A stretch of 64,000 nucleotides of DNA, from positions 8,162 through 72,161 of the forward strand of contig JAJZPB010000002.1 in the NCBI GenBank assembly GCA_021811365.1. The letters run 5' to 3'. Shown here piece after piece: positions 26,446 to 47,767 of this stretch (within the stretch, counting starts at the first letter, position 1; every line of letters starts with the position of its first letter). Made by a program: the position numbers and the translations under genes. This DNA comes from a bacterium (GTDB lineage Bacteria > Patescibacteriota > Minisyncoccia > Phycocordibacterales > Phycocordibacteraceae). A model generated the notes under the pieces. It did not search any database and had not been told where the DNA came from. It was given only the letters and a program-made list of their open reading frames with translations.

Positions 26446-26515
26446 GGGCCTATAGTTTAGTGGTAAAACAGCGGTCTCCAAAACCGCCGTCCCAGGTTCG
26501 AGTCCTGGTGGGCCC
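26446..26515 (+). tRNA. tRNA-Trp (anticodon CCA)
   Basis: GGGCCTA acceptor, anticodon arm GCGGTCTCCAAAACCGC (near-identical to E. coli tRNA-Trp), T-arm CCAGGTTCGAGTCCTGG, 3' acceptor TGGGCCC-G. CCA is not encoded. Confidence 0.8.
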
Positions 26516-26625
26516 GCCCGAAGACTTTTGTATCGGACAGACCCGAAGGCCTTATTCTTAGCCGTTATTGCGCAGCACGTTTTTAGAAAAGCTAGATAGG
26601 GCGAAGGGACACCGAACTTTGGCCG
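26508..26625 (+). repeat. att-like repeat copy a (native tRNA-Trp 3' end plus ~110-nt downstream flank)
   Basis: Reads gcccgcccgaagacttttgtatcggacagacccgaaggcc...agaaaagctagatagggcgaaggg. It is the prototype of the copies listed below. Confidence 0.7.
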
Positions 26626-27674: not shown

Positions 27675-27766
27675 TTTTACACCCGCCGAGATTCGAACTA
27701 ACGCGTAAAAATAAAAAGCTATATTCTAAGCCATAGGCGAAGGTACGACTCGAGAGCTTTCGTATC
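27675..27766 (+). repeat. Conserved ~90-nt element (copy 1) immediately upstream of att-like copy b
   Basis: gagattcgaac...aagctatattctaagccataggcgaaggtacgactcgagagctttcgtatcc. A second copy lies at 29385-29470. Confidence 0.55.
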
Positions 27767-27880
27767 CTGCCGCCCGAAGACTTTAGTATCGGACAGACCC
27801 GAGAGTCTTATTTGTAGCCATTATTACGCAGCACGTTTTTAGAAAAGCTAGATAGGGCGAAGGGATTCCGAACTTTTCCC
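27767..27880 (+). repeat. att-like repeat copy b
   Basis: Near-identical by eye to 26510-26620 over about 110 nt, including the ...cgcagcacgtttttagaaaagctagatagggcgaaggg tail. Confidence 0.7.
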
Positions 27881-29384: not shown

Positions 29385-29470
29385 AACCCCGACGAGATTC
29401 GAACCAAACACCGAAAATAAGGAAGCTATATTCTAAGCCATGGCGAAGGTACGACCCGAGAGCTTTCGTA
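29385..29470 (+). repeat. Conserved ~90-nt element (copy 2) immediately upstream of att-like copy c
   Basis: gagattcgaaccaaacaccgaaaataaggaagctatattctaagccatggcgaaggtacgacccgagagctttcgtatcc, closely matching 27675-27766. Confidence 0.55.
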
Positions 29471-29570
29471 TCCCTTCGCCTCCGCCAACACACTTTTTTA
29501 TCGGTGTCAACCCGAAGGCCCAAATCCACTACCCTCAGACTTTTTTATCGTGCAGACCCGGGAGCCTTAT
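29461..29570 (+). repeat. att-like repeat copy c (two tandem degenerate cores)
   Basis: cgccaacacacttttttatcggtgtcaacccgaaggcccaaatccactaccctcagacttttttatcgtgcagacccgggagcc. Closely matched by copy g at 51861-51960. Confidence 0.6.
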
Positions 29571-29636: not shown

Positions 29637-29906
29637 TTACTTGCCCTTGTGCTGGATTTTGTCCGATTTCTCGCGGTTTTCCTCCCAATGCAGCGGCTGC
29701 AAATTTCGCGCATGGTCCGTTCCGCCATTGGCCACTGGATTTTTATGGTCGATTTCCCAACCATAATCACCACACGTGCCATATGAGCCAAAACGAATCG
29801 TGTTTCCGTATGTGTCTTTCCGCCACGTGTCAGGATCTTTGCCGCGTATCTCTCGGCCCTTCCCCCAGACCTCCTCGACTTGTTTTCTCGAAGCCATATG
29901 CCTCAA
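29637..29906 (-). CDS. HNH endonuclease
   Basis: GYGWEIDHKNPVANGGTDHARNLQPLHWEEN fits the HNH motif (His-metal finger, paired Asn). Confidence 0.75.
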   Translation of the reverse strand: MRHMASRKQVEEVWGKGREIRGKDPDTWRKDTYGNTIRFGSYGTCGDYGWEIDHKNPVANGGTDHARNLQPLHWEENREKSDKIQHKGK

Positions 29907-30029
29907 TGTCTTAATGCTGATAAACCTGATTCATCGACCACAAGGGGGACCCTTGACCGCCAGGTGGTATCTATAATATACTTCCCGCTATGGGAGTCAA
30001 CATGGAGGTACTAAGAGCGAACCACGGCT

Positions 30030-30317
30030 ATGCAATTAGTTGGAAAAGACACCTTGGATACCTTCAAAAATGAGCATCCCGATGCGCGCTCACAGGTCGA
30101 AGCGTGGGAAGCCGAAGTGGAGAACGCTAGTTGGGGAACACCGCACGACCTCAAACGGCGTTATCCGAAGGCAAGCCTTCCCGGTAAACAACAAGCCATA
30201 TTCGACATTTGCTGGAACAGGTATCGGTTGTGGGTCAAGGTCGCATACAACACCGGTATCGTGATAGTGAAGGCGATCGGTACACACCAAGAGTACGAAG
30301 AGTGGCCTATTGAATAG
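30030..30317 (+). CDS. higB: Type II toxin-antitoxin system HigB-family toxin (RelE-like mRNA interferase)
   Basis: 95 aa ending ...LWVKVAYNTGIVIVKAIGTHQEYEEWPIE, like the HigB C-terminus (THKEYD). The antitoxin gene starts 3 nt downstream. Confidence 0.75.
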   Translation: MQLVGKDTLDTFKNEHPDARSQVEAWEAEVENASWGTPHDLKRRYPKASLPGKQQAIFDICWNRYRLWVKVAYNTGIVIVKAIGTHQEYEEWPIE

Positions 30318-30320
30318 CAT

Positions 30321-31532
30321 ATGGACGATATAAAAATTATAAAAACCAAAGAAGACTACGAACGCGCGCTTCGACTCGTCGAGACGCTTGTCGATCGCGA
30401 CCCGGAATCCGGTTCCGCAGACGCAGATCGACTCACACTTCTCACGGCGCTCGTCAAGGAATACGAATCGAAGAGCTTTCCGGAGCATCTCCCCGACCCG
30501 ATTGAGGCAATCAAGTTCCGCATGGAGCAGGAAGATCTTAAGCCTGTGGATCTTGTGCCATATATCGGCAGTGCGGGAAGAGTCTCTGAAGTACTTTCTG
30601 GGAAACGTCAGCTCACGCTTGACATGGTGAGGGCGCTTTCTGCCGGTCTTGGCATTCCAGCGAAAGTTCTCATACAAAAACCGTCAAGAGATTTCGAATC
30701 ACAGAATTGGGATACTGCGCTCGTTAAGACGATGGAGCGGCGCGGCTACTTCGGCAAGAAGACAATGAAAGATCACACCAAATCCGAACTGATAAGCGGA
30801 TTCTTCGCAGCATTCGGTCACATGCAACCAGCCGTTTTATATCGGAAGACAAGCTTTCGGTCCGCGCCACGTACCGACAATAATGCCCTGCTCGCTTGGG
30901 GGAAGCGTGTGTTGCAGAAATCAGAGAAAATAAAAGTGCCAGCGAAATTCAAAGACGGCACGGTAACGCTCTCATTTATGTGCGCGGTACTGAATCTGAG
31001 TACCAGAGATAAAGGACCTGTGCTTGCACGAGATTACCTTAAAAAACACGGCATTAAATTAGTCATTGAGCCGCATCTCCCAAAAACACACCTCGATGGT
31101 GCCACGTTCTTCGCATTCAAGGCGAATCCCGTTATAGGACTCACTATCCGTCACGACCGACCTGATAACTTTTGGTTCACATTGATGCACGAGCTTGCAC
31201 ATGTTGCCCTCCATTACAACAACGGTGTTGAATCCTTCTATGACGAAAAATTGCAGGATAAGGACGGTATAGACATTGATCCCAAAGAGCAGGAGGCAGA
31301 CAAACTTGCAGAGGAATCTATTCTTCCGGAAAGCAAATGGGAGACGAGCGCGGCGAAGTCAACGCCGAACCAGTTCTCTACCGAAGACTTAGCTAACGAG
31401 CTCGGCGTACAGACCGCAGTCATAGCGGGAATGATTCGGTTCAAGCATCAGAACTTCTTCTACCTGAATAAAATCGTGAACGACGAGACTCTATCCGTTA
31501 AGAAGTATTTTGCCGAGGAATTTACCGACTAA
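30321..31532 (+). CDS. HigA-like HTH (XRE) antitoxin fused to ImmA/IrrE-family zinc metallopeptidase domain (COG2856-like)
   Basis: The N-terminal ~100 aa resemble HigA antitoxins (MDDIKIIKTKEDYERALRLVETL...). The C-terminal domain carries an HEXXH zinc site (LMHELAHVALH) in an ImmA/IrrE-type context. Confidence 0.8.
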   Translation: MDDIKIIKTKEDYERALRLVETLVDRDPESGSADADRLTLLTALVKEYESKSFPEHLPDPIEAIKFRMEQEDLKPVDLVPYIGSAGRVSEVLSGKRQLTLDMVRALSAGLGIPAKVLIQKPSRDFESQNWDTALVKTMERRGYFGKKTMKDHTKSELISGFFAAFGHMQPAVLYRKTSFRSAPRTDNNALLAWGKRVLQKSEKIKVPAKFKDGTVTLSFMCAVLNLSTRDKGPVLARDYLKKHGIKLVIEPHLPKTHLDGATFFAFKANPVIGLTIRHDRPDNFWFTLMHELAHVALHYNNGVESFYDEKLQDKDGIDIDPKEQEADKLAEESILPESKWETSAAKSTPNQFSTEDLANELGVQTAVIAGMIRFKHQNFFYLNKIVNDETLSVKKYFAEEFTD

Positions 31533-31535
31533 ACT

Positions 31536-32660
31536 ATGGCTACCATTAAACCCTACATCCCAATATTGCGATGGCGACCAGCTGAAATAAAGGCGCTGGA
31601 GAAGCTTTTCCCGCAAGACCGAGGGAATATCACGCCGTTAATAGAATTTGTGATGCCCGCTCCGTCAATCACTCGTAAAGGCGACAAAATCATCATTACA
31701 AAGACGCGTAAGGAGAAATTCTTGGAAGAGCTCCCGGATGTTGCCAAGAATTTGTTGAAGTCATGCGGTCAGATGCACATGCTTATCGACGTCCAGCAGC
31801 TCGACGCAGACATCAGGGCATCTTCGCTTGAGCAAATTCTCGCATCGTCGAAGGATTTGGATCTGTTTTCAATTCCTGTAACGTACATTATTCCTATGAT
31901 GGGCACGAGCGCCGATGCGGCTACCCGTGCTGCTGCCGTAAAATACGCCAAATCGAGCGGACATGGACTCTGCATACGTATCGATAAGTCACATCTCAAA
32001 GAGCCCAACCTGTCGTCTCAAATCGCTACCTTCGTCAAGGAGAACCAGCTCGATATAGGGAAAATAGATCTACTCATCGACCTGCGCGTCATTGATCAGG
32101 ATACGGCCGTCGCTGATGTTGTGAAGAAACTGAAGATCCTCCCGGACTTGCAAAAGTGGCGTTCATTCATCGTATCGGGAGGTGTGTTTCCTAAAGATTT
32201 GTCCGACTTTCTCCCGGGCGATGTACACCAGCTAGAGCGGTTTGATTGGAAACTGTGGAATAAGCTTCAAAAGACAGACTTACTTCGTAAGCCGTTGTTC
32301 TCCGACTACACCATTCAACATCCGTTCTATGAGTATGTAGCTGCCATTGGCAGTGCGAGCGTGCGATACACGGATGATGGTGAATGGTGGATTTTCCGGG
32401 GGACGAAGCCGGGTCATATCAACAGCAAGACTGGTAAAAAAGGGCCCGGGCGAGAGCAATACATCGGCCATGCACGCACGCTCATCAATCGAGTTTTCTA
32501 CAAAAAGTCTGGTTTTAGTTTTGGTGATGCAGAAATCACTCGAATTGCAGCAGCTGAAAATCAAAAGCCGGGGAGCCCGGCGACCTGGCTTACCATTGGT
32601 ATCAACCACCACATCACGCTAGCTGCACGTCAGACCGCCAGTCTTGCCGGGAAGATTTAA
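31536..32660 (+). CDS. Beta-protein-like (sce7725-like) protein, partner of the ImmA/HTH gene
   Basis: 374 aa beginning MATIKPYIPILRWRPAEIKALEKL. From recollection this matches the N-terminus of the 'beta protein'/sce7725 family that pairs with COG2856 ImmA genes. Family assignment is from memory, not a search. Confidence 0.5.
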   Translation: MATIKPYIPILRWRPAEIKALEKLFPQDRGNITPLIEFVMPAPSITRKGDKIIITKTRKEKFLEELPDVAKNLLKSCGQMHMLIDVQQLDADIRASSLEQILASSKDLDLFSIPVTYIIPMMGTSADAATRAAAVKYAKSSGHGLCIRIDKSHLKEPNLSSQIATFVKENQLDIGKIDLLIDLRVIDQDTAVADVVKKLKILPDLQKWRSFIVSGGVFPKDLSDFLPGDVHQLERFDWKLWNKLQKTDLLRKPLFSDYTIQHPFYEYVAAIGSASVRYTDDGEWWIFRGTKPGHINSKTGKKGPGREQYIGHARTLINRVFYKKSGFSFGDAEITRIAAAENQKPGSPATWLTIGINHHITLAARQTASLAGKI

Positions 32661-33228
32661 GAACATCCCACACGTACTCTTTAAGAGAGTCGATCTTCTG
32701 CGATTCAGCGAGCCGTTGATACACAGCCTCTCGTGGTTTTGTTCGAACACCATCGGCTTTGCCCAAATCCTCAAGCCTCTCGAGAGCCTCGTGCCTCCAT
32801 AGCAGTCGTGCAATCGAAATACTATCCTGCTCAAGATTATTTTGTGGACTCCTGATGTGGTTAAAAAAGACCGTACCATTCTCGTCCACGCGGGCCGTCT
32901 CGATACCCCACCAATCGGGCACCATTCTAAACGCATCCACGAAATGTTTGCTGCCCACTACAAGGGTTACCTGGTCGAATATGCTGTTGTAGGCATGCAT
33001 TTGCTCTGGCAAGCGGGTAAGCGTATCGCGATCACTCTTGATCTCGAAACCCCGCAGAGAACCGTTCACGACGGCGACGTCGATCCTAGCAGCTCCATGC
33101 CAGACTCCTAACTCAGGTATGACGCGGTAATTCGGATAGTCAACGACGAGCCGATTGACCAACGCTTCCCGAATGATTGTGTCGTTTGTTTGATTCATTT
33201 CTTGAAGATCAATACGACACGGGTCCAT
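32614..33228 (-). CDS. sce7726-like protein with PD-(D/E)xK nuclease-like motif
   Basis: VIPELGVWHGAARIDVAVVNGSLRGFEIKSDRD fits a D...E-x-K restriction-endonuclease-fold core. Convergent with the beta-like gene and overlapping it by about 47 nt. Confidence 0.5.
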   Translation of the reverse strand: MDPCRIDLQEMNQTNDTIIREALVNRLVVDYPNYRVIPELGVWHGAARIDVAVVNGSLRGFEIKSDRDTLTRLPEQMHAYNSIFDQVTLVVGSKHFVDAFRMVPDWWGIETARVDENGTVFFNHIRSPQNNLEQDSISIARLLWRHEALERLEDLGKADGVRTKPREAVYQRLAESQKIDSLKEYVWDVLKSSRQDWRSDVQLA

Positions 33229-33291: not shown

Positions 33292-35772
33292 TCACATCTC
33301 CACGACTTTCATCGCTTCGTCGCCGTAGTGGTTGATGACCTTTACGGCGATCTTGCCTGTCTTAGGCTTCGGGAACGAACGTGATGTAGTCGAATGGAGT
33401 TCATCCCACACATCCTCCGGAATGTCCGCCTTCAGGGCCTTTTTGAGCTTCTCATACGGGTTGTCTGCCCCTAGGAAATACGCGTGAGTGACGAAAAATG
33501 CTTCGTCACTGTAGTTCGTGTCGATGAACCACGCGGCAATATCGTGCTCGAGCTCACCATCACCGGATGAGCGGATTTCGCTTTTCACGGGGTCATATAC
33601 GTCCATACCGACGATTTCGACGGTGACACCATCTTTCGATTCCTTCACATTTACCTGCGGCTCGCCAAAGGCAATGAATAGGTTGCCGGAGCCGGTCTTC
33701 TTGAGGAGATCGCCCATCGAGAGATCTGGGTTGATTTTCACCTTCATAAGGCGCAATCCCTCCTGTTGTTCGGATTCGGTAAACGCTGAGGCGTCAAAAG
33801 AAGTTGCTGCGACCACGAGCAAATCGGCAAAGTTCTTCGCTACGCGGATAGCGTCGCGGACGAAGTCATCGTCAACGCTACCGAATTCAGGACCGATGGC
33901 GACCGCGACCTTTTTAAGGCCCTCGACAGTCTTGTATTCGCCAACCGCTTGCACTTCGGGTCCACTCGGCAGGATCTCAAGATTCTCGAATTCGACACGG
34001 GCGCCTTTCTCACCGGTCTGCACCCCCGCAGACCTTAGGTTCTCAACAACTGTTTCGACGAATCGCTCCGACGCGATCATTTCCTGTGCATCGGATACAC
34101 GATGTGGCGCTAGCGACTCGACCGTAAAAGGACCGGAGACGCGTACGACATCCTTATTTTCTAGGGGCTGGTCATAAAGCACTTCCTCTTCGGGCTGCTC
34201 ATCATTCGCAAGCGACCTGAGTGTCACGTGCGGGACGGTCTTGTAGATGAATCCATCTGCCACGTTTGCTCTCTCGTCGCTCCCGTTTTCTTTGAGCTTA
34301 AAGTATGGGTATTGAGCTGTCATGAGCCGCGTGCGAGCAAGTGCGAGCGCAACGCGTGACGTGTCAGTTGTGATCCAGCGTCGGCCCCATTGCTCGGCAA
34401 CATATGCAGTCGTCCCTGACCCACATGTTGGGTCTAGGACGATATCTCCCGGATCGGTTGTCATTAAAATACATCGCCGAATAACCTCTGTGTTTGTTTG
34501 AACAACGTATTTTTTGTTGTCAGCACCAACGGTATCTCCCCAGGAGGCCAATAATTTGCTTACGGGGTAGTCTTCCTCGAAGTACCGGTAGGTTAGTCTG
34601 TTTCCTTCAACTTGAACCCTACCCTTCATTACAAGCCTCTCAAGGCCTTCTCTGGTGGTTCCGTAACCCGGCGGTCCCGGCGAATATTTCTTTCCTTCGA
34701 ATTCAAAATCGAATTGGCCGCTTGGGTTCGTGCCAGATGCGATGAGAGATTTCAGTAAATAAACCTGAGCGCCTTTTGGTAGCAGCTTGTGGTTATTTAG
34801 TTGCTCACGTGTCATTTGATGATGAGAACCATCTGGCATGCGATACCACTTGTAATGGAAATCACCCTCAGTGATTGTCTCAACAAAAAGACCACGGTAT
34901 TTAAGCGAGTCCTTGTCTTTCGCGTACCAAATTATGAAATCGTTCATTTGTTCCAAGAATTTTGCGCCGAGGGGCATTGTCTTTTTCCTGAATGGGATAA
35001 GCGCAATGAAATTCCCGCTTCCGAAGACCTCGTCCATGAGTACTCTAACCAGATGAACATTGGCATCATCAATCTGCACAAAGCACGAGCCGCTTTCTGT
35101 CAGAAGATCACGGGTGACAAGGAAGCGATCGCGCAAATACGAAAGGTAAGAATGGGTACCGAGCTCCCAAGTGTCGCGGAATGCCTTGATCTGTTCCGGC
35201 TGGCGGATCATGTCGTCGAGCTTGTTATCCTTCACGTCACGCTTGCGCGTTGAGACCTGCCAATTGCTACCGAATTTGATGCCGTATGGCGGATCGATGT
35301 AGACGGTTTGTACTTTCCCGCGCATACCCTCCTTCTCGAGAAGCGAATTCATGACGACGAGCGAGTCGCCCAGGATCATGCGGTTCTTCCAGTTATCTTC
35401 GTGCTTATAGAAATCGACCGCCTGATGCGCCTGGTCGGCCGCGAAGTCGCCAAAGAGCGAGATCATCGGCAATTCTTCATTAGCCCGCATCTTGAGCCGC
35501 GCGATGATGCCTTCCGGAGCGATATTTTCCTGTACGTAAATCGGTACAGTTGAGACGCTCATCTCAGCGCCCTCTTCCTCCTTACCAGCCCAGACGAGCT
35601 GCGGATCGAGCGACGGATCGTATGCGTATTTTTTCTTCACTTGCTGCTTTTCGCGCGGAGAAAGATCCCGCGATTCCTCCTGCGTCGGGATGCGTGTACG
35701 CGTCGTCTTGTGTTTGTAGCTTTTTACAGCTGCCGCCGTTGATAGTTCTGGTGTTTTCTTTCGTGATGCCAT
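33292..35772 (-). CDS. mod: Type III restriction-modification system methyltransferase (Mod), N6-adenine specific
   Basis: LVWAGKE N-terminal box, DPPYG (motif IV), and DPTCGSGTTAYVA (SAM-binding motif I) in the permuted order typical of type III Mod. Confidence 0.9.
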   Translation of the reverse strand: MASRKKTPELSTAAAVKSYKHKTTRTRIPTQEESRDLSPREKQQVKKKYAYDPSLDPQLVWAGKEEEGAEMSVSTVPIYVQENIAPEGIIARLKMRANEELPMISLFGDFAADQAHQAVDFYKHEDNWKNRMILGDSLVVMNSLLEKEGMRGKVQTVYIDPPYGIKFGSNWQVSTRKRDVKDNKLDDMIRQPEQIKAFRDTWELGTHSYLSYLRDRFLVTRDLLTESGSCFVQIDDANVHLVRVLMDEVFGSGNFIALIPFRKKTMPLGAKFLEQMNDFIIWYAKDKDSLKYRGLFVETITEGDFHYKWYRMPDGSHHQMTREQLNNHKLLPKGAQVYLLKSLIASGTNPSGQFDFEFEGKKYSPGPPGYGTTREGLERLVMKGRVQVEGNRLTYRYFEEDYPVSKLLASWGDTVGADNKKYVVQTNTEVIRRCILMTTDPGDIVLDPTCGSGTTAYVAEQWGRRWITTDTSRVALALARTRLMTAQYPYFKLKENGSDERANVADGFIYKTVPHVTLRSLANDEQPEEEVLYDQPLENKDVVRVSGPFTVESLAPHRVSDAQEMIASERFVETVVENLRSAGVQTGEKGARVEFENLEILPSGPEVQAVGEYKTVEGLKKVAVAIGPEFGSVDDDFVRDAIRVAKNFADLLVVAATSFDASAFTESEQQEGLRLMKVKINPDLSMGDLLKKTGSGNLFIAFGEPQVNVKESKDGVTVEIVGMDVYDPVKSEIRSSGDGELEHDIAAWFIDTNYSDEAFFVTHAYFLGADNPYEKLKKALKADIPEDVWDELHSTTSRSFPKPKTGKIAVKVINHYGDEAMKVVEM

Positions 35773-35784
35773 ATGCCTATTGTA

Positions 35785-38712
35785 CTAGCTTTGGTTCGCG
35801 ATGACTTCGCGTATTGTTTTCTGCGTCTCGTGAATGTCGCGGATCTCGACCATCGCCCAACGACCGAAGCCGCCGTGGTTATTGACCGCCGGAATCCAGA
35901 GGTCATTCGTGATCTTCACCTTCGATACTTTTTTCTGATCCTTCTCGCCGGTTACCTCGATAAGTAAATTCAGCACGTCGCCGTTCGGCAAGCGGATCCG
36001 CGCGATGTAATCGGGGTAGTAGAGATGGATCGCGCCGTTGCGCTCGTACGGGATGGTGAAATCGAGCTTGTAGTTCTTCGCATACGAGATGACTTCCTCC
36101 ATGTCTTCGAGTCGCTTCGCGACGCCCTGTTCCCAAACCTCGGTGTCGGCGACGACGTAGTTTAAATGGCTCTTCGTCGTCTCGAAGACCGGCCGTGTCG
36201 TGAGAAAATCGACGCCCGCGGTTGAGCCGCGCGGGTTGCGACTGGAAAGGACGGGGAGGAGTTTGCGCTCGCCCTCCTGATCGTCGAGATTCGCTTTCAC
36301 GATCGCGTGCTGGGTCTTCTCGGATGCGCCATGGAGATATTCGCCAATTGAGAGATAACCGATGAACATGTTGTCCTTAAGGATGACCTGCGTCCGCACG
36401 TACTTCTCGGCAATCTTGCGGAGCTGTGGGTAGAGCCAGTATTTCGATGCCCCGGACGCGTCGCGGTAATACCGCTCAAGGAGTTCCTTCGCCAGCATCT
36501 CGACGACCGTACCTTCCCGTCGTTCGCGGATCTTTTCCATCGTCTCGGTCGTCTCCGCGCCGATGATGCCCTCAAGCACGACCTTCGTCGTCTCGTTTTC
36601 GATGACCGTTTTCGAGTCGTCGGTAAATTTCGCCGCAAGTCTTTTCTCGTCGATTTCATAGTGATAGCCCTCGACGCGCGGGAATTCGATCTGGTATGTA
36701 GCAGCGCGTTCTGGAAGCGTCTTCACGTGATGGTACTCGACTGGCTCCGGAGGCGGCGTCGGCGTACCGCTCGAATCCCAAAGAATGAACGGCACGCCGT
36801 ACACTTCCGCGTACTCGGCGCGGAATAGGCCGTTCTCGTCCGGCGTGTAGTCGACGCGGCGGAGCGCACGCCCGACAACCTGCTCGCAGAGGAGCTGTGT
36901 CGAAAAGGCACGGACGCCGAGAATATGCGTCACCGTGTTCACGTCCCATCCTTCCGTGAGCATGGAGACCGATACGACGCACTTGATGTTTTCGCCAAGG
37001 CGTCCCGGCTTGCCGACCGTATTCATAACCTCTCGGAGGATCTCCTCATCCGTCGGCTCATCGCGGCCTGGGAAGCGGCGCTTGTATTCTTGCTTGAATT
37101 CGTCGATCTCTCGCGCGAATGTTTTCTTGAACTCAGGCGTCACACTCTCGCCACTCTCGAGACTCGCGCTGTCGATAAGGAGGGTGTTGGGCTTTTCGCG
37201 GAGCGCGAAGCCGTCCTCGTTTCGGAATACGTCGAGATGTCCTTTTTCGATTGATACCTGGCCGCTCGCAGTCTGCGATTCGTATCCGGCTATCCAGTCG
37301 TATACAAGCTTCGAAACCGCCATGTTGTTGCAGACAACAATCATCACGGGCGGCATGACGTTATGTCGCTTCTTCTTTTCCTCTTCGTATAGTTTGTAGT
37401 TTTTCTCGTAGCTGCCGTAAAGGGAGAGAAGCGCCGTCTCGAGTTTGCCCGGTAGACGCTCGGCCGGAAGCTCCTCGCGAATGTGTACCCAGAGATTCCG
37501 GAACTCCGGCAACGACTCGCGCCCGATACGATCGTCAGCGCTCGGAAGGCGCGGGATCTTTACGATGCCGCTTTCAAGGGCGTCGAGAAGCGAGAAATCG
37601 TATGTGACCCAGGGGAAAATCGTACCCTCAGGATAGCCGGAGCCCGAGAGGAAATACGGCGTCGCTGAGAGGTCGATGACCGCGTTCACGGTTGAACGCG
37701 ACGCGAGTGTCGTGAGCCCCGCGAGCCAGACTCTCGCGGCCTTGTTGTTTTCAGCCGCCTCGGCGTGCTCATCAGCAGAGAGCTTTTCGTCCGTAGGTTT
37801 CTCCTGGTAGCAGTGATGCGCCTCGTCGTTGATGACAAGAATGCGCGACTTGCCGGCGACCTGCTTGAAGACGCGTCGCGCCATCGCTTCCGGCGTTTCC
37901 TGTACGACATCCTCGTTGATGAGCCCTGCGGCTTTCATGACGCCACCGATCGCAAAGCGAGGATTCTGACGAAGCACCATCTGCTGGTAGTTGACGATAA
38001 GAATGTTCGCGCGATTGAGATCCTCCATGTCGGTAATCGTCACCACTTCGCGCTCGCGGTAATAGTTGTGCGGATTGTTCGGTTGGAGTACGTTCAGACG
38101 ATCGCGAATCGTGATGCCTGGCGCGACGACCACGAACGTATCCGTGAAGCGCGTGTCCTGCGGATATCGAATTTTGTTGAGCGTGTTGTACGCAATGATC
38201 ATCGCCATGACGACGGTCTTGCCGGAGCCGGTCGCGAGCTTAAACGCGAGGCGGTAGAGACCGCCGTTCGCATCGCGATTGACCGTCTTGAGCTCGTTGA
38301 TGATCCAGTGCTCGCCGACTTTCTCCGCGACCTCGTTTATATAAATGAGTGTTTCGAGCGCTTCGATCTGACAAAAGAAAAGGCGGTTCTCGCGCGTGTC
38401 GTCGGTCCAGTACCGGAGGAGGTCTTGGGTTGTCTTGGTCGTGCCGGAATATCCAGCCTTCCGCCATTCGGTCACTTTCACCCGAATCTTGTTGACGAAT
38501 TCGTTTTCCTGAAGGCGCTCGCTGCTCCACGCCTGCGCCGCAGGGTCGTGCCGTGCCTGGGCAACACCACGCCCACGCGGACGGGCTATGGGGATCTGAA
38601 CCGTGCTCGGACGCCGCGACTCGATAACCTCTTCAGTCAGGCCGCGTTCGTCGGATTTAAAATAGCGGCCTGGTTCCGCATAGGGAGAATTGAGAATCGG
38701 CGAGATTTTCAT
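35785..38712 (-). CDS. res: Type III restriction enzyme Res subunit (SF2 helicase plus C-terminal endonuclease)
   Basis: Walker A (ATGSGKT), DEAH box (INDEAHH), helicase C motifs (TEGWDV, QVVGRALR). Its stop lies 13 nt upstream of the mod start. Start placed at MKISPILNSPYAEPG (38710-38712). Confidence 0.9.
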   Translation of the reverse strand: MKISPILNSPYAEPGRYFKSDERGLTEEVIESRRPSTVQIPIARPRGRGVAQARHDPAAQAWSSERLQENEFVNKIRVKVTEWRKAGYSGTTKTTQDLLRYWTDDTRENRLFFCQIEALETLIYINEVAEKVGEHWIINELKTVNRDANGGLYRLAFKLATGSGKTVVMAMIIAYNTLNKIRYPQDTRFTDTFVVVAPGITIRDRLNVLQPNNPHNYYREREVVTITDMEDLNRANILIVNYQQMVLRQNPRFAIGGVMKAAGLINEDVVQETPEAMARRVFKQVAGKSRILVINDEAHHCYQEKPTDEKLSADEHAEAAENNKAARVWLAGLTTLASRSTVNAVIDLSATPYFLSGSGYPEGTIFPWVTYDFSLLDALESGIVKIPRLPSADDRIGRESLPEFRNLWVHIREELPAERLPGKLETALLSLYGSYEKNYKLYEEEKKKRHNVMPPVMIVVCNNMAVSKLVYDWIAGYESQTASGQVSIEKGHLDVFRNEDGFALREKPNTLLIDSASLESGESVTPEFKKTFAREIDEFKQEYKRRFPGRDEPTDEEILREVMNTVGKPGRLGENIKCVVSVSMLTEGWDVNTVTHILGVRAFSTQLLCEQVVGRALRRVDYTPDENGLFRAEYAEVYGVPFILWDSSGTPTPPPEPVEYHHVKTLPERAATYQIEFPRVEGYHYEIDEKRLAAKFTDDSKTVIENETTKVVLEGIIGAETTETMEKIRERREGTVVEMLAKELLERYYRDASGASKYWLYPQLRKIAEKYVRTQVILKDNMFIGYLSIGEYLHGASEKTQHAIVKANLDDQEGERKLLPVLSSRNPRGSTAGVDFLTTRPVFETTKSHLNYVVADTEVWEQGVAKRLEDMEEVISYAKNYKLDFTIPYERNGAIHLYYPDYIARIRLPNGDVLNLLIEVTGEKDQKKVSKVKITNDLWIPAVNNHGGFGRWAMVEIRDIHETQKTIREVIANQS

Positions 38713-38784
38713 GTAGATAAAGGGCCAAGCTAGAAAAGAATACTTAGCGCAGTACTTGCATATTGGACCATTTTTCATAATATT

Positions 38785-40107
38785 TCAATCAGCCGAAATT
38801 GCGCCTCTAGTTACGCGCAGCTTTGTCTTTAGGCAGCCCAGCAGTTCTCGCTTCTCCTCCTTCGAACCGTCGACCAGGATATATTTGGCGTAGGTTGAGA
38901 CATCGATTTCTTGATCGGGACTTGCCGGGTTCGGCAGCCCAAGTACGGTCCGTTGGAAGCGGCCATAACGCCTTAGCTCATCCCGCAACTTCGCTTTTAC
39001 GTCGAGCTCGTTGAAGTCGATCTTGTCGAATATCTTTATAAGCTGCTCGATGAGCTCCTCCTCACGCAGATATTTGTTCCCCTTGCAGTAGTGGTCCTTG
39101 GAGCGGTTGCAGCCGTAGTAGACATAGCGGGCGGTGGTGCCGTTTTTGCGTGGCTTGTATTTCTCCTCCGCGCTTATGCCGGAGCCGCACTGGCCGCAGG
39201 TCATGAGCCGCGTGAAGGCGAACTCCCTGCTCTCGCGCACTACGACCTCTCGGCGCAGCTGCGACTGCACCTGGTCGAAGAGCTCTTTCGTAATCAGGGG
39301 CTCGTGCTTGCCCTGGTACCAATTGCCACTTCCTTTCGGAAACTCGAAGGTGCCGCAGTAGAAGGTATTCTGGAGGGTGCGGAACACATTGCTGAATGCC
39401 AGGTTCTTGTTCCCTTTCGTTTTGAAGTTGAGCTCGAACTTGAGCCAGTGGTGCACTTTCCGGCCCGACCATTTCTCGTATGCCACCTTTTCGAACATCT
39501 TGCGCACAACCGGTCCGCGTTCGGGGTCGATAACCATCTGACAGCGCTTCTCCATATCTTTCTGGGAGCGGTATCCGGTCGGCGGCACGGTTGGCCACAG
39601 TCCCATCTCCACTCTCGCCCTGAGCCCTCGCTTCACGTTTATGCCACGATTATCGTTCTCAAGCTTTGCCTGACCTCCCAAGATCGTGAGGAGGAATTTT
39701 TCATTCGGATTGTTTGAGAACCGTTGCCCGAAGGTGCGTATTTCCTCGAGGTACCCGGCGTCCATAAGGTCTACGACACGGCCGAGGTCGCCAGCGTTCC
39801 TGCTGATGCGGTCCGTTGCCCAGGTAAGGATGCCGTTGTACTTGCCGCTTTTAATTTCTTCCACGATCTCGTTGAAGACCGGCCGCTGGCCGGTATCCTT
39901 AGCCGAATGGCTTTCCCGCTTGAGCGCCACCACCTCAAGGCCGTCGCGCTCCGCGAGCGCAAGCATCTCTTTGATTTGGCTATCTATACTCAGGACCTGC
40001 CGTTCCTCGCTCTCCGTGCTCTTACGAGCATAAAGGCAGAATTTGACCTTAATGGGGGCTTGTATCTGCTTGGCTGGGAATCCTGCTGGTGCTTCTATTG
40101 TGTTCAT
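38785..40107 (-). CDS. Large serine recombinase (resolvase/invertase N-terminal domain plus recombinase and zinc-ribbon domains)
   Basis: YARKSTESEERQVLSIDSQ gives the catalytic Ser in the resolvase-type N-domain. GILTWATDRISRN, a recombinase domain, and a Cys cluster (CGQCGSG...CNRSKDHYC) follow. Confidence 0.9.
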   Translation of the reverse strand: MNTIEAPAGFPAKQIQAPIKVKFCLYARKSTESEERQVLSIDSQIKEMLALAERDGLEVVALKRESHSAKDTGQRPVFNEIVEEIKSGKYNGILTWATDRISRNAGDLGRVVDLMDAGYLEEIRTFGQRFSNNPNEKFLLTILGGQAKLENDNRGINVKRGLRARVEMGLWPTVPPTGYRSQKDMEKRCQMVIDPERGPVVRKMFEKVAYEKWSGRKVHHWLKFELNFKTKGNKNLAFSNVFRTLQNTFYCGTFEFPKGSGNWYQGKHEPLITKELFDQVQSQLRREVVVRESREFAFTRLMTCGQCGSGISAEEKYKPRKNGTTARYVYYGCNRSKDHYCKGNKYLREEELIEQLIKIFDKIDFNELDVKAKLRDELRRYGRFQRTVLGLPNPASPDQEIDVSTYAKYILVDGSKEEKRELLGCLKTKLRVTRGAISAD

Positions 40108-40973: not shown

Positions 40974-43472
40974 CTACGTACGGCCCTGTCGGTAGTAAAA
41001 GACCTTCGCAAAATCAAGGGCAAACAAATAAACGGCCATAAGGGCAAAGATTGTGATAACCGATCCGGTTGGTAGTGATGCAAAAGAAAGCCAAGATTGA
41101 AACTGGGGAATATAAACTATGGCCAAGGAAAACACCGACGCAAGCAGAAATGATACGTTTAGTAGGTGAGATGGCGCTCTCGTTTTCCAAAAGTGGCCTC
41201 TGTTACGAATCGCGTAAAACACGACAAACGACAGGAATGTAATGAATACATAGAGACTTGTTTGTGCCTGCTTTTCCGGTTGCGACTTTACGAGCACAAA
41301 GTAAAAGATCTCAAACAATGCCGTCGGCACACCGAGCACTAACGACAACAGCATGATCTCTTTCATGTTGTGTTTTTCCGGTCGCATGACCTCGGCGTCA
41401 TCAACGGTATCTGTAGATACCGCAATGAGAGGGATATCGGCAACGACAGACGTTAGAAGCACCTGTACCGGAAGCAACGGCAACTCAGTGGACAAGAGAT
41501 ACAAGACGCCGAGCGCAATGAAATTGCCGAAATTACTGACCATGGTATACGCGACGTATTTATTGATGTTTACGAAAATCGATCGGCCATACTTGATACC
41601 GTTCACAATAACCTCAAGACTTTTATTAAGAAGTACTATATCGGAATTTTCTTTCGCAATGTCGGTTGCCGTATTAACGGCAATAGCAACATCCGCTAGT
41701 TTCAGCGCAGGTGCGTCATTGATCCCATCACCCTGATAGGCGACGACGTATTCCTTCTTGAGTGCGGCGATGATATTAAACTTTTGCGCAGGCGAGACCC
41801 GCGCAAAGACATTTGAGCTGAGTACTGTAGCGCTGAATTCTTGAGGAGACAATGTTTCCAGCTCATCTCCGAGATATACGCGCTCTCCTTCCTGTACAAG
41901 CCCAATTTGTTTGCCAACATACTCAGCCACCTCTCTGCTATCGCCGGTCAACACTTTAATCTCGATGCCCAATTTCTGAGCATGTTGAATTGTTGTCTTA
42001 GTGCTCGGTCGTAATGGGTCCTCAAAGCTGGCGTAGCCCAGGAAGTGCATTCCGTGTTCGTTTTTCAAAATATCAAAATCGTCTGTATAGGTGATTTCTT
42101 TGTATGCCAAAGCAAGGTGATGCAGGCCCGACTTCCCTTCTTCAATGAGCGTGCGGGAATATTCCGACTTTTTACCGGATGTGGAAATTTCAATCAACAT
42201 TTCCGGAGCTCCTACAGCAACCAGGTATTGCGTATGAGTCTTCGCATCCTCAAGAATGACCCTGTTTCTGCGAACGTCAGGATCAAATGGTATCTCTTTG
42301 ACGATGGAAAGTTCTTTTGCTTCCCGGGCGACCTGTTCCTGGACGTAGTTAAGAAACGCGTCGTCGTACGAATTTTGAGATCTCCGTTTCTTACCCTTAA
42401 GCGGCGTTATGGTTGCGTACATCAGCTTCTCGAACAAGTCGTCGTCGTTTGTGGCAATTGAGCGAATCACCATTTTATTTTCGGTAAGAGTGCCGGTCTT
42501 ATCGGTGCACAGTAGGTTTACGTTACCAAGATCCTCCAAGGACGAGAGGCGCTTTACGACCACATGTTTCTTTGCAAGCTTTATAGCGCCAATTGAAAGC
42601 GTTACCGTTGAAATCACTGGCAGCACCTCGGGTACAACCGCGACAGCGAGAGCAATGACGAACAACAGCAAGCCGGGTATATCGTAGCGGCCGGAGCTGA
42701 GAAGTAGTTTGACAATGAATATGAGAGTCAACCCAATGAGAGTGGCCCGCACCAAAAGTGCGCTCAATGACTGAAGAGACTTCTCGTACTGAGTTTGCTT
42801 CTTAGTTTCTGTAGATAACTTTGCAATCGTCCCCAGTTCCGTATCTCTTCCTGTCGCATACACCACGCCAGTGCCGACTCCTTTTTCGATACTACTGCCG
42901 GTATAAAGAAGTGTTTCCGATGGCGCATTCGATACGGGCGAGACGCGTTTAATAACAGGAACCGATTCACCGGTAAGCTGCGATTCATTGACTTGCAGGT
43001 AGTCGGCCTCAAGAAGCCGCATGTCGGCTGGAACGATGTCTCCTTCGCGTACTGTGAGTACATCGCCAGGAACAACCTGGGAGTCGTCAAGAAGTCTTAT
43101 TTTGCCATCGCGTTTCAACCTAACCTGTTTCGAGATGAATTGTGATAATTTTTCGATTATTTTTTCCGACTTATATTCTTGATAGAAACCGAGCGACGTA
43201 TTGATGAGGAGAATCAACAAAATGATGGTGCCATCGGTGTAGTCGTGGATGCTATACGAAATGACACTTGCTATGACGAGCAGGTATACTAGTGAACTTT
43301 TCAGTTGGCGACCGAGAACGACTAGGGCATTAGCAGTTTTCTTGCCCATGACATTTGGACCATACTTAACAATGCGTTTTTCTGCCTCCTTCTGATTAAG
43401 CCCGCTGAACGAGGTCTGGAGACGGTCTATGAGCTCGGATTGACTGAGTTGGCGTGCTAGATCTTTATTCAT
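40974..43472 (-). CDS. Cation-transporting P-type ATPase, MgtA-like (magnesium-importing type)
   Basis: CTDKTGTLTEN phosphorylation site, TGDS, GDGINDAPALK hinge, ten TM helices. The N-terminus LSQSELIDRLQTSFSGLNQKEAEKR resembles MgtA. Confidence 0.85.
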   Translation of the reverse strand: MNKDLARQLSQSELIDRLQTSFSGLNQKEAEKRIVKYGPNVMGKKTANALVVLGRQLKSSLVYLLVIASVISYSIHDYTDGTIILLILLINTSLGFYQEYKSEKIIEKLSQFISKQVRLKRDGKIRLLDDSQVVPGDVLTVREGDIVPADMRLLEADYLQVNESQLTGESVPVIKRVSPVSNAPSETLLYTGSSIEKGVGTGVVYATGRDTELGTIAKLSTETKKQTQYEKSLQSLSALLVRATLIGLTLIFIVKLLLSSGRYDIPGLLLFVIALAVAVVPEVLPVISTVTLSIGAIKLAKKHVVVKRLSSLEDLGNVNLLCTDKTGTLTENKMVIRSIATNDDDLFEKLMYATITPLKGKKRRSQNSYDDAFLNYVQEQVAREAKELSIVKEIPFDPDVRRNRVILEDAKTHTQYLVAVGAPEMLIEISTSGKKSEYSRTLIEEGKSGLHHLALAYKEITYTDDFDILKNEHGMHFLGYASFEDPLRPSTKTTIQHAQKLGIEIKVLTGDSREVAEYVGKQIGLVQEGERVYLGDELETLSPQEFSATVLSSNVFARVSPAQKFNIIAALKKEYVVAYQGDGINDAPALKLADVAIAVNTATDIAKENSDIVLLNKSLEVIVNGIKYGRSIFVNINKYVAYTMVSNFGNFIALGVLYLLSTELPLLPVQVLLTSVVADIPLIAVSTDTVDDAEVMRPEKHNMKEIMLLSLVLGVPTALFEIFYFVLVKSQPEKQAQTSLYVFITFLSFVVFYAIRNRGHFWKTRAPSHLLNVSFLLASVFSLAIVYIPQFQSWLSFASLPTGSVITIFALMAVYLFALDFAKVFYYRQGRT

Positions 43473-45786: not shown

Positions 45787-46230
45787 TCAGCTGCCCACAT
45801 CTCGCGAGCTCTTAGGCTCGCGTTCGCGCTTCCGCCTCTGCAGTTCGAACGTTTCTTTGCTGACGAGAATTCCATCGTCCTGGTCCTCAATATCGACAAG
45901 CATAGGACTCTCCCGCCGCCTCTGACGCGTGTCCGAATACTCAGATGCCTTTGGTGCGTAGCGCGGGGAGTTGTTCGATAGGAAGTACTTTATTGCTCCC
46001 ATGTCCCCCGCTTTGACTTTGTTCACGAGCTGCATTTCGCCGACGTCGCAGAGGTCTTCCCGGGCGAACTCCATAGTCTCTTCGACGAGACGGCCGAATT
46101 CCGGATTGCGCTTCATCCAGCGGTATATGGTTGAGCGGTCAATGCCGTGCTTACGCGCAACATGCGCGATGAACGGGGTCCTCGCAAGGTCTTCGAGCAC
46201 CTTCTTCCGTATGTTCTTGCTATACGCCAT
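45787..46230 (-). CDS. HTH-domain protein (terminase-small-subunit-like / transposase-HTH-like)
   Basis: IAHVARKHGIDRSTIYRWMKRNPEF is a helix-turn-helix. The C-terminus is acidic/basic. Sits immediately downstream of the ParB-methylase. Confidence 0.5.
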   Translation of the reverse strand: MAYSKNIRKKVLEDLARTPFIAHVARKHGIDRSTIYRWMKRNPEFGRLVEETMEFAREDLCDVGEMQLVNKVKAGDMGAIKYFLSNNSPRYAPKASEYSDTRQRRRESPMLVDIEDQDDGILVSKETFELQRRKREREPKSSRDVGS

Positions 46231-47563
46231 TCACTTTTACGCGCTTCTGCCCCGTGTGCTTTTCCCAGCGATTGAGAATCACCTCTGCGTATACGGGACT
46301 CTTCTCCATGATGCAGCAGCGTCGCCCGAGCGCGACCGACGCCATGAGGGTTGAGCCCGAACCGCCGAACGGCTCGAGCACGAGCTGCCCGCGGCGCGTG
46401 AGCACCTTGATGTACGGGATGAGCAGTGGCAGCGGCTTCACACCGAAGATGATGCCCTGGCCCGAAGACTTCTCGTCAGCGGCATTGTAGTCAAGGAAAT
46501 CGGTCGGGCAGTACTTCTTGTCCTTGCCGTACGGCTCCCAGTGCGGCTTTCCCGCGATACCGAAGAGCGCGGTGCGGTATTCCTCCTCGAACAAACCCTC
46601 CTCGTCGCCCAAGTTAAGGCCGCCGAATTCCTCGGTCGTTCCAACCATGGCGATGTCGTGTTTGCTGAAAAACTTATGCTGTCCGGCATACCCCTGGTTG
46701 CGGTTCGGGAGGTGCCAGACGAGCATGTTGCGCACCTTCCAGTGCTTCTCCATTTCGCCCCACACCTCGCGCAGGTTCTTCCAGTTTTCGTAGCAGATGA
46801 TGGCAAAGTCGGGAGCCGCCACCTTCGCCACGTTATCCATCCAGAGAGTCGTGAAGTCGGGCGGAATTGACTCGGTTTCAAGATATCGACGGTTCTTTTT
46901 CGCGCCAAAGCCTACCGTAGGTTCACCTGCACGCGTCTTGCCGTGGAGATAATCTAAACGGTATGGTGGGTCGGTCATCACCATATCGGCTTTTTCCGTG
47001 CCCATGAGCGCGAGCATGTCGGCTTCGATAGTGCTGTCGCCAATATAGAGACGGGAGCCGTCGAGATCGTACAAGTCGCCCTTCTGGCTCGTTATGGCGC
47101 TGATGCCAGCCTTGCCGAGCGCTTTCTCGAGGTCGAAATGTTCTTCTGCGCTCTCTTCTTCAAAAATCGCATCGAGCTCTTCTGAGCTGAACCCCACCTC
47201 CGTGAGGAACGATTCGTCGAATTCAGCGAGCAGCTCATAGTCCCATTCCCCTACGGCCTTGTTTAGCCTTAGGCATAGGTCTCTTTCCCTTTCGATATCG
47301 GGAATGTCGACGTACACAATGGGGACGAATTCGTACTTAAGCTGCTTGAGCGCCTCGTACCGAAGATTGCCCCCAATAATAATGCCTTCGCGCCCGGGAG
47401 CGTGGTTCACAACGAGCGGGTCGACGACGCCGTGCTTCGCGATGCTGTCGGTTACGGCTTTTTTGGTCGACTCGTCAATTACTCTCGGATTATAGGGGGC
47501 ATGCCTAAGCGAGTCGGTTGGAACGTACTCGATGCGGAGCTCGGTTTGGGTGGTGTTGGCCAT
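46220..47563 (-). CDS. ParB-like nuclease domain fused to DNA methyltransferase (N6-A/N4-C, DPPY type)
   Basis: The N-terminus has ParB N-domain motifs (NPRVIDESTKKAVTDSIAKHGVVDPLVV). The core has DPPY and a C-terminal EPFGGSGSTL SAM-binding motif. This architecture is common on phages and plasmids. Confidence 0.85.
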   Translation of the reverse strand: MANTTQTELRIEYVPTDSLRHAPYNPRVIDESTKKAVTDSIAKHGVVDPLVVNHAPGREGIIIGGNLRYEALKQLKYEFVPIVYVDIPDIERERDLCLRLNKAVGEWDYELLAEFDESFLTEVGFSSEELDAIFEEESAEEHFDLEKALGKAGISAITSQKGDLYDLDGSRLYIGDSTIEADMLALMGTEKADMVMTDPPYRLDYLHGKTRAGEPTVGFGAKKNRRYLETESIPPDFTTLWMDNVAKVAAPDFAIICYENWKNLREVWGEMEKHWKVRNMLVWHLPNRNQGYAGQHKFFSKHDIAMVGTTEEFGGLNLGDEEGLFEEEYRTALFGIAGKPHWEPYGKDKKYCPTDFLDYNAADEKSSGQGIIFGVKPLPLLIPYIKVLTRRGQLVLEPFGGSGSTLMASVALGRRCCIMEKSPVYAEVILNRWEKHTGQKRVKVNGV

Positions 47564-47767
47564 TACGGTTGGGTCTTTAAAGGGGCGCGTTGTAAAAGGA
47601 AGCCCCTCTATCCACACTACGGCCGGTTTTGCGAAATTTGAGAAATTTGACAGGCGTCTAGTTTTAATTTACTGTGCGAACAGCTTCTCGCATGCCAACG
47701 TTCCCAAATAGGGCTGAAACAAGCCGCCTTTGGGAGGCGTATAGGCAAATAGAGTATCCCGTTCCTT

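Follow-up and report, generated by a model that had tools for sequence, protein, structure and literature searches.

The locus analysed here raises the question of whether four adjacent genes of an uncultured bacterium work as one anti-phage unit and, if so, to which known systems this unit is related. It is located at positions 30030-33228 of a stretch of 64,000 nucleotides (nt) of contig JAJZPB010000002.1 (assembly GCA_021811365.1, family Phycocordibacteraceae of the Patescibacteriota); the whole stretch is referred to as the window and the four genes as A, B, C and D. An earlier sequence-only reading had proposed a defence module made of a HigB toxin, a HigA-ImmA fusion, a beta-like protein and an sce7726-like nuclease. 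With good confidence, the locus is a mobile four-gene anti-phage cassette, a composite of a toxin-antitoxin-like (TA-like) pair and a beta/cII pair: A, B and C form a member of PD-lambda-2, a system catalogued in PADLOC and DefenseFinder, and D is a nuclease-like protein of the P4 cII type. The two modules joined in the cassette, TA-like A/B and beta/cII, are each able to occur alone. The four open reading frames (ORFs) described by the earlier reading are all present, at the positions listed here with the other features of the cassette:

29953-29982, plus strand: sigma-70-like promoter candidate TTGACC-18-TATACT, 48 nt upstream of gene A, 10 of 12 positions matching
30030-30317, plus strand: gene A, 95 amino acids (aa), HigB-type RelE-fold protein (PD-Lambda-2_A)
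30321-31532, plus strand: gene B, 403 aa, HigA-like helix-turn-helix (HTH) domain fused to an ImmA/IrrE (M78) zinc peptidase (PD-Lambda-2_B)
30339-30674, plus strand: HigA-like HTH of B, residues 7-118, from a profile compared with HigA structures
31041-31427, plus strand: M78/ImmA peptidase domain of B, residues 241-369, Pfam Peptidase_M78
31188-31202, plus strand: HEXXH motif of B (H290-E291-x-x-H294), from the alignment
31536-32660, plus strand: gene C, 374 aa, Beta_protein family (P4 beta, PD-Lambda-2_C)
32614-32660, coding on both strands: tail-to-tail overlap of C and D, 47 nt of their 3' ends
32614-33228, minus strand: gene D, 204 aa, P4 cII / sce7726 family
33037-33114, minus strand: putative catalytic codons of D (E39, D50, E62-x-K64), from alignments and the predicted model

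Genes A, B and C are all on the plus strand. The gap between A and B is 3 nt, as had been read before, and the gap between B and C is also 3 nt, not the 4 nt given earlier. The convergence of C and D was borne out, with their 3' ends overlapping. Strong profile matches show all four products to be conserved proteins and not chance ORFs.

Component families and related systems

Genes A to C are assigned to PD-lambda-2 because each matches the corresponding PADLOC model: PD-Lambda-2_A (expectation value, E, 2.5e-35, full length), PD-Lambda-2_B (E 3.9e-133, residues 1-399 of a 402-position model) and PD-Lambda-2_C (E 3.2e-42). PD-lambda-2 was obtained by functional selection from Escherichia coli ECOR42 and comprises a HigB-like protein, a HigA-like HTH protein with a C-terminal peptidase and a protein 'related to a P4 phage antitoxin' (Vassallo et al. 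2022, PMC9519451); its listed domains are PF09907 (component A), PF06114 and PF14350. In the ECOR42 system B is toxic alone and is rescued by co-expressed A; C is dispensable for this neutralisation and must be present for protection against lambda-vir, and the system acts by abortive infection (PMC9519451). The three proteins, their order and their Pfam domains (HigB_toxin, HigA-HTH plus Peptidase_M78, Beta_protein) are the same in the window, so the pairing of an ImmA-type peptidase with a beta protein, which had been called functionally uncharacterised, belongs here to a system with a known abortive-infection phenotype. Two differences separate the window from PD-lambda-2: the fourth gene, a convergent cII/sce7726 overlapping the 3' end of C, is absent from the published three-gene definition, and the host is an uncultured organism, the closest relatives of the cassette proteins being mostly from Patescibacteria or candidate phyla radiation (CPR) metagenome-assembled genomes (MAGs) and not from E. 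coli.

Gene A matched Pfam HigB_toxin (E 7.6e-22), in agreement with the earlier call of a HigB-type RelE-fold toxin. Among 37 homologues at least 95% share residues R66, G84, H86 and Y89, and R66 together with the C-terminal motif G84-T-H86-x-x-Y89 is compatible with a RelE/HigB-type active site. A sequence search of A against solved HigB structures gave no match.

Gene B has 4,657 homologues at E <= 1e-10. A profile of B homologues aligned its residues 7-118 with the E. coli HigA structures 5ifg and 5ycl (E about 1e-12) over nearly the whole HigA chain, and residues 241-369 matched Pfam Peptidase_M78 (E 1.5e-9). Residues H290, E291, H294 and H298 are invariant in an alignment of 12 homologues. 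The fusion of a HigA-like HTH to an ImmA/IrrE HEXXH peptidase, as read before, is thus upheld. Weak and partial PADLOC matches were found in the peptidase stretch with capP (E 8.8e-9) and RmrA (E 2.3e-5).

Three groups of known systems resemble the A-B pair. As in canonical HigB/HigA the toxin-type gene comes first, A belongs to HigB_toxin and carries its C-terminal G-T-H-x-x-Y motif, and the E. coli HigA chain as a whole aligns with the N-terminus of B; unlike it, B is longer by about 280 residues, among them a peptidase whose HEXXH is intact, two more genes are joined to the pair, and the direction of rescue is reversed in the E. coli homologue. RosmerTA or Xre-COG2856 systems comprise a small toxin-like gene and an Xre-type HTH fused to an M78 zinc peptidase. 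Their RmrA models match B weakly and in the peptidase region alone (residues 240-352, best E 2.3e-5), with no full-length match, and B was rejected as a member of the RmrA family; moreover the partner in the window is of HigB type, and in the E. coli homologue the HTH-peptidase protein was the toxic one. The third group are the protease-controlled HTH repressors ImmR/ImmA, DdrO/IrrE and CapH/CapP, which like the window have an M78 peptidase and an HTH DNA-binding module beside defence or mobile-element genes, whereas in B the HTH and the peptidase are one polypeptide.

Gene C matched Pfam Beta_protein over its full length (E 5e-63) and the PADLOC 'beta' model weakly (E 6.5e-9); its identity with P4 beta is 20% (pairwise E 1e-5). 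The Beta_protein half of the earlier family call therefore stands and the sce7725-like half does not: neither C nor P4 beta matched any NCBIfam model at E <= 0.01 or at E <= 10, where HMMER filters may hide very weak matches. The predicted fold of C is a triosephosphate isomerase (TIM) barrel, with a predicted local distance difference test (pLDDT) score of 91.2 and a predicted template modelling (pTM) score of 0.91. Its invariant polar residues are E37, D85, D127, R131, C146, R148, D150, H153, D182, R209, R235, D257, Y258, R277, R288, K323, D331, N357, H358 and H359, and several of them sit within or at the ends of predicted strands. Such a pattern in the predicted model is more in keeping with an enzyme than with a passive 'antitoxin'.

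A G+C-rich hairpin with a T-run behind it (GCCGGGCTCCCCGGC TTTTGATTTT) was noticed within the 3' end of C, at 32567-32581 on the minus strand, 33 nt beyond the stop of D. It could be a terminator of the D transcript, antisense to C. This candidate was rejected: such sites are no more frequent than by chance, and the hairpin lies in codons of a conserved P-G-x-P stretch of C.

Gene D matched NCBIfam sce7726_fam (NF033832) with E 3.6e-45 and 154.1 bits against a curated cut-off of 70, as the earlier assignment to sce7726 anticipated; it also matched the PADLOC 'cll' model (E 2.2e-25), and the newer Pfam family PF26915 Phage_P4_cII is precomputed on a protein identical to D. Its identity with P4 cII is 39% over 74 aa (E 2e-14). 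The family is large, with 4,965 cluster representatives (50% identity clustering) at E <= 0.001. Residues E39, D50, E62 and K64 do not vary among 22 close homologues, nor across 10 sequences among which are P4 cII and the homologues of Rac-SA53, Mycofy1, Sinorhizobium and Rhodococcus, so the D...E-x-K nuclease-like core noticed before extends to phage and plasmid proteins. The predicted structure of D (pLDDT 87.6, pTM 0.83) consists of an alpha-beta-beta-beta-alpha-beta core and, after it, a helical C-terminal part, with the four residues placed on strands 1-3 of the alpha-beta-beta-beta core. Fold-search matches of the model include PaqCI, Can2, AF1548, N.BspD6I, NucS and SdaI, all of restriction-endonuclease fold. 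Because of these invariant residues and this predicted fold, D is very probably an active PD-(D/E)xK nuclease.

The counterpart of C and D is the gop-beta-cII system of satellite phage P4, whose record contains gop (plus strand; it codes for a small membrane toxin), beta (plus strand) and cII (minus strand), RefSeq already naming P4 cII 'sce7726 family protein'. The pairing of beta and cII has reportedly been known in P4 since 1990 (Ghisotti 1990). As in the window, a toxic element lies directly upstream of beta on the same strand and cII is convergent ('Rst_gop_beta_cll', Rousset et al. 2022). Its role in defence is validated, and it behaves as an abortive-infection or cell-death system: it protects against lambda and P1, gop being toxic without beta (PMC9122126), and its toxicity is triggered by the phage gene orf184 (bioRxiv 10.1101/2023.04.06.535777). 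P4 cII carries the same invariant E-D-ExK residues as D and is longer (264 aa against 204 aa), and the element upstream of beta in the window is A plus B instead of gop. Iterated phmmer and hidden Markov model (HMM) searches from P4 gop over all fetched loci, including L004 (identical to the window at 27.8-35.4 kb), matched only P4. The wiring of HigB to a fused antitoxin/protease and a beta protein, which had seemed unusual, is that of PD-lambda-2, and convergent beta/cII is that of P4 gop-beta-cII (PMC9122126). A search for mechanistic literature on beta, cII or sce7726 found none.

Conservation of the cassette and of its beta/cII pair

Species-representative genomes were scanned with B, giving 40 loci; their ORFs were called and compared with iterated HMMs made from the four proteins of the window. 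The arrangement A>B>C><D was present in all 24 reference-genome loci with room downstream and a B protein at least 43% identical to that of the window. The hosts of four-gene loci include Parcubacteria, Saccharibacteria, other Patescibacteria, Sideroxydans, uncultured Gammaproteobacteria, Acidobacteria, Aminicenantes, Atribacterota, Armatimonadota, Bdellovibrionales and Terriglobia. The flanking ORFs are essentially not common to the 24 loci, and the cassette therefore moves as a unit ending at the start of D.

A further 80 loci came from metagenomes scanned with more distant B proteins as seeds: 13 ABCD, 1 BCD, 8 ABC without D though room was present, 8 ABC at a contig edge, 32 AB without C and 18 AB at a contig edge. 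The pooled set of 123 B-centred loci comprises 39 ABCD, 8 ABC without D and 45 AB only, the others being cut by contig ends. D is thus present in 39 of the 47 C-bearing loci with room, and it is frequent yet not obligatory, since eight A-B-C loci with room have none. The co-directional order A-B-C was also found in 57 other C-bearing loci. A neighbourhood survey had been proposed as a check on the module, and the same order was recovered in the 39 loci of many phyla.

In 34 of 39 cases the B protein of an ABCD locus has as its nearest neighbour the B protein of another ABCD locus. The B proteins of AB-only loci group with one another, apart from the C-bearing loci, and the ABC loci without D are scattered among the C-bearing ones, which suggests sporadic loss of D. 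This grouping bears on a quite improbable alternative, namely that a HigBA-like TA pair and a beta/cII pair are merely juxtaposed in a defence island with no joint function. Each pair does occur alone, as this alternative expects. It is countered by the clustering apart of the C-bearing B proteins, by the same order, strands and 3-nt spacing in 39 loci of many phyla, of which the 24 from reference genomes have unrelated flanks, and by the requirement of C for PD-lambda-2 defence.

A-B pairs alone were identified on plasmids of Acinetobacter, Paraburkholderia and Limnohabitans and also on chromosomes. A Sinorhizobium plasmid contains a distant version (B 32% identical) formed by a hypothetical protein, an XRE-peptidase, beta and a convergent sce7726. 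The closest relatives of the cassette proteins are largely from Patescibacteria/CPR MAGs, and B proteins 75-83% identical to that of the window (loci L006, L008, L028, L010 and L012) belong to Parcubacteria, Saccharibacteria and uncultured Gammaproteobacteria MAGs. As such identities join hosts so distant, the comparison indicates a very recent horizontal spread of one cassette between Patescibacteria/CPR and Proteobacteria. Neither the window cassette DNA, in near or distant searches, nor the A-B contig of an Enterobacteriaceae matched any of 5,426 complete E. coli genomes. The sole insertion inside the cassette among the surveyed loci is an extra 171-aa ORF, with an N-terminus hydrophobic by eye, between B and C of the four-gene locus L018 (7216-7781, Candidatus Yonathbacteria contig PFQT01000031.1).

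The beta/cII pair was identified as a stand-alone pair in phage Rac-SA53, in mycobacteriophage Mycofy1, on an E. coli plasmid-prophage (Shiga toxin-producing, STEC) and on a Rhodococcus plasmid. A DNA search with the Rac-SA53 beta/cII query found the Rac-type prophage pair in 93 of the 5,426 complete E. coli genomes. A scan of viral contigs with a diverse cII alignment gave 80 loci, 78 with room, and in 77 of the 78 a beta gene converges on cII. Most of these viral loci have no co-directional gene directly upstream of beta.

The tail-to-tail overlap of beta and cII is a family trait. It measures 38-83 nt in all 24 reference-genome four-gene loci, and 76 of 77 viral pairs have an overlap of 11-159 nt. 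P4, whose genes are separated by a gap of 27 nt and do not overlap as those of the window do, and one viral locus depart from this. It may tentatively be proposed that beta and cII (a TIM-barrel enzyme and a PD-(D/E)xK nuclease) are an ancient core of two genes sufficient in itself, and that this core does the actual sensing and effector work in a superfamily spanning PD-lambda-2 and gop-beta-cII. The module upstream would be Gop, HigB/HigA-ImmA or no switch at all, and the overlap would be an antisense or transcriptional-interference switch setting the beta:cII ratio.

Some viral loci carry other genes upstream of beta, read from sequence alone. A LexA/CI-type repressor-like gene (HTH plus S24 peptidase) is directly upstream of beta and on the same strand in the IMG/VR contigs L075, L077, L078, L083, L084, L088, L095 and L103, an arrangement that recalls lambda cI-rexAB. 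An ImmA-like HEXXH gene is upstream of beta in the viral loci L060, L068 and L069.

These loci touch on the main alternative for the cassette, in which B is a fused CapH/CapP- or ImmR/ImmA-like stress-responsive repressor-protease controlling the transcription of beta, and of cII through the overlap, with beta/cII as the effector and A restraining B. It is unlikely, with evidence on both sides. The beta/cII pair stands by itself in 77 of 78 viral loci and 93 E. coli genomes, an HTH-peptidase repressor precedes viral beta (LexA/CI-like in 7 + 1 loci, ImmA-like in 3), B has its partial capP match (E 8.8e-9), and beta is required for defence and not for neutralisation. However, the toxicity of B alone and its rescue by A in E. 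coli are TA-like and unexpected for a simple repressor, A-B pairs are frequent without beta/cII nearby (45 loci), and the LexA/CI-like neighbours may be just the prophage immunity gene.

The cassette is not a new kind of system: its three-gene core is a member of a known and validated system, and the beta/cII pairing is already known and already named by annotation pipelines. A literature search found no report that most C-bearing PD-lambda-2-type loci carry cII, that PD-lambda-2 and gop-beta-cII have one conserved two-gene core in common, or of a near-universal dual-coding 3' overlap in the beta/cII core. The cassette links the separately catalogued PD-lambda-2 and P4 gop-beta-cII through their common beta/cII pair, and the published three-gene definition of PD-lambda-2 misses a partner found in 39 of the 47 C-bearing loci surveyed. 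It also offers putative catalytic residues open to testing: the HEXXH of B, E39/D50/E62/K64 of D and those polar residues of the beta barrel that are invariant.

Proposed working

For the composite of PD-lambda-2 and P4 cII the following working is proposed, any individual step of which is rather doubtful. A and B would neutralise each other; toxicity of B alone and rescue by A were observed in the E. coli homologue only. The HTH of B may repress the A-B-C operon, by likeness to HigA and to ImmA/IrrE/CapP, and the promoter candidate at 29953-29982 is a possible operator region for this HigA-type HTH. By analogy with ImmA, IrrE and CapP, the zinc peptidase of B may be switched on by an infection cue. 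The P4 system responds to a specific phage protein. Beta, needed in the homologue for defence and not for neutralisation, could couple the infection signal to the A/B switch. Activation would lead to cell arrest or death, that is, to the abortive infection observed in the homologues. The candidate agents of arrest are unleashed B, mRNA cleavage by A, or both, and cII might add DNA cleavage as an additional or back-up effector. The tail-to-tail overlap may couple the expression of C and D. The idea that the protease destroys its own HTH and so frees a HigB toxin does not fit the sole experiment on a homologue, in which the HTH-peptidase protein was toxic alone and was rescued by the HigB-like protein.

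Several points weigh against the identification of the locus as a four-gene anti-phage cassette. All the experiments concern homologues (ECOR42 PD-lambda-2 and P4 gop-beta-cII), and these are three-gene systems. The ECOR42 clone reaches only 396 bp past the end of C, and the convergent cII of the window extends about 570 nt beyond C; 396 bp being too short for an intact cII, either the E. coli defence was independent of cII or ECOR42 carries the form with three genes. The eight A-B-C loci without D make D dispensable for at least some members of the family. The E. coli polarity, with B toxic and A protective, may not apply to the clade of the window, which is roughly 40-45% identical. Fold searches with the C model gave generic TIM-barrel matches and no specific relative, and the counts of promoter and terminator candidates in the region are not above the shuffle or chance expectation.

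Genomic setting

The cassette adjoins a type III restriction-modification (R-M) system, in line with the defence-island setting suspected before. The methylase gene at 33292-35772 (minus strand) matched PADLOC MTase_III (E 5.9e-208), and the gene at 35785-38778 (minus strand) codes for a restriction endonuclease of the BPTD_3080 family (NCBIfam, 1053 bits against a cut-off of 800). The two genes (33292-38778) are a complete type III R-M pair. A large serine recombinase gene (Resolvase, Recombinase and Zn_ribbon_recom) is located at 38785-40107 (minus strand), 6 nt upstream of the start of the restriction gene. The G+C content is lower over about 27-36 kb of the window (0.46-0.53 compared with about 0.56). 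The recombinase, the R-M pair and the low G+C suggest an integrated mobile defence island.

D is on the same strand as the methylase gene and 63 nt downstream of it, as would be expected if D were part of the neighbouring type III R-M operon. This is highly improbable and effectively refuted by the unshared flanks of the 24 loci: D adjoins beta in all four-gene loci regardless of what comes next, there is no conservation of the flanking genes, and beta/cII is paired in P4, prophages and plasmids without R-M genes nearby.

The setting is also relevant to an improbable alternative in which the cassette mainly stabilises its mobile island by post-segregational killing or addiction and provides no phage defence. 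A serine recombinase and an R-M system adjoin the cassette in a region of lower G+C, A and B behave TA-like, and A-B pairs are common on plasmids. Both parent systems, however, were recovered or tested as phage defence, with abortive-infection phenotypes or phage triggers, and stabilising and defence roles are not mutually exclusive.

To the left of the cassette two pairs of direct repeats were observed, at 26514-26620 and 27770-27876 (107 nt, 91% identity) and at 27682-27774 and 29388-29480 (about 93 nt, 76-90% identity). They begin at the 3' end of tRNA-Trp (26446-26518), the only known RNA family found in 26-41 kb of the window, and bracket two small gene pairs: DAGK with DUF1361, and PEMT with a 260-aa ORF without a Pfam match. 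One of the repeats has a tRNA T-arm-like motif, though no tRNA is called there. The repeats may be what serial insertions left behind, as att-like remnants, or else intergenic repeat elements.

Diverging from gene A is a stand-alone HNH endonuclease-like ORF of 89 aa (29637-29906, minus strand; Pfam HNH, E 1.9e-5). It is also present on two identical metagenomic contigs and lies outside the conserved cassette in other genomes. Finally, a second stretch of low G+C (41-46 kb) contains a gene for ParB_N fused to an N6/N4 DNA methyltransferase (46220-47617, minus strand; PADLOC MTase_II, E 7.2e-37), with a P-type cation ATPase gene nearby (40974-43472).

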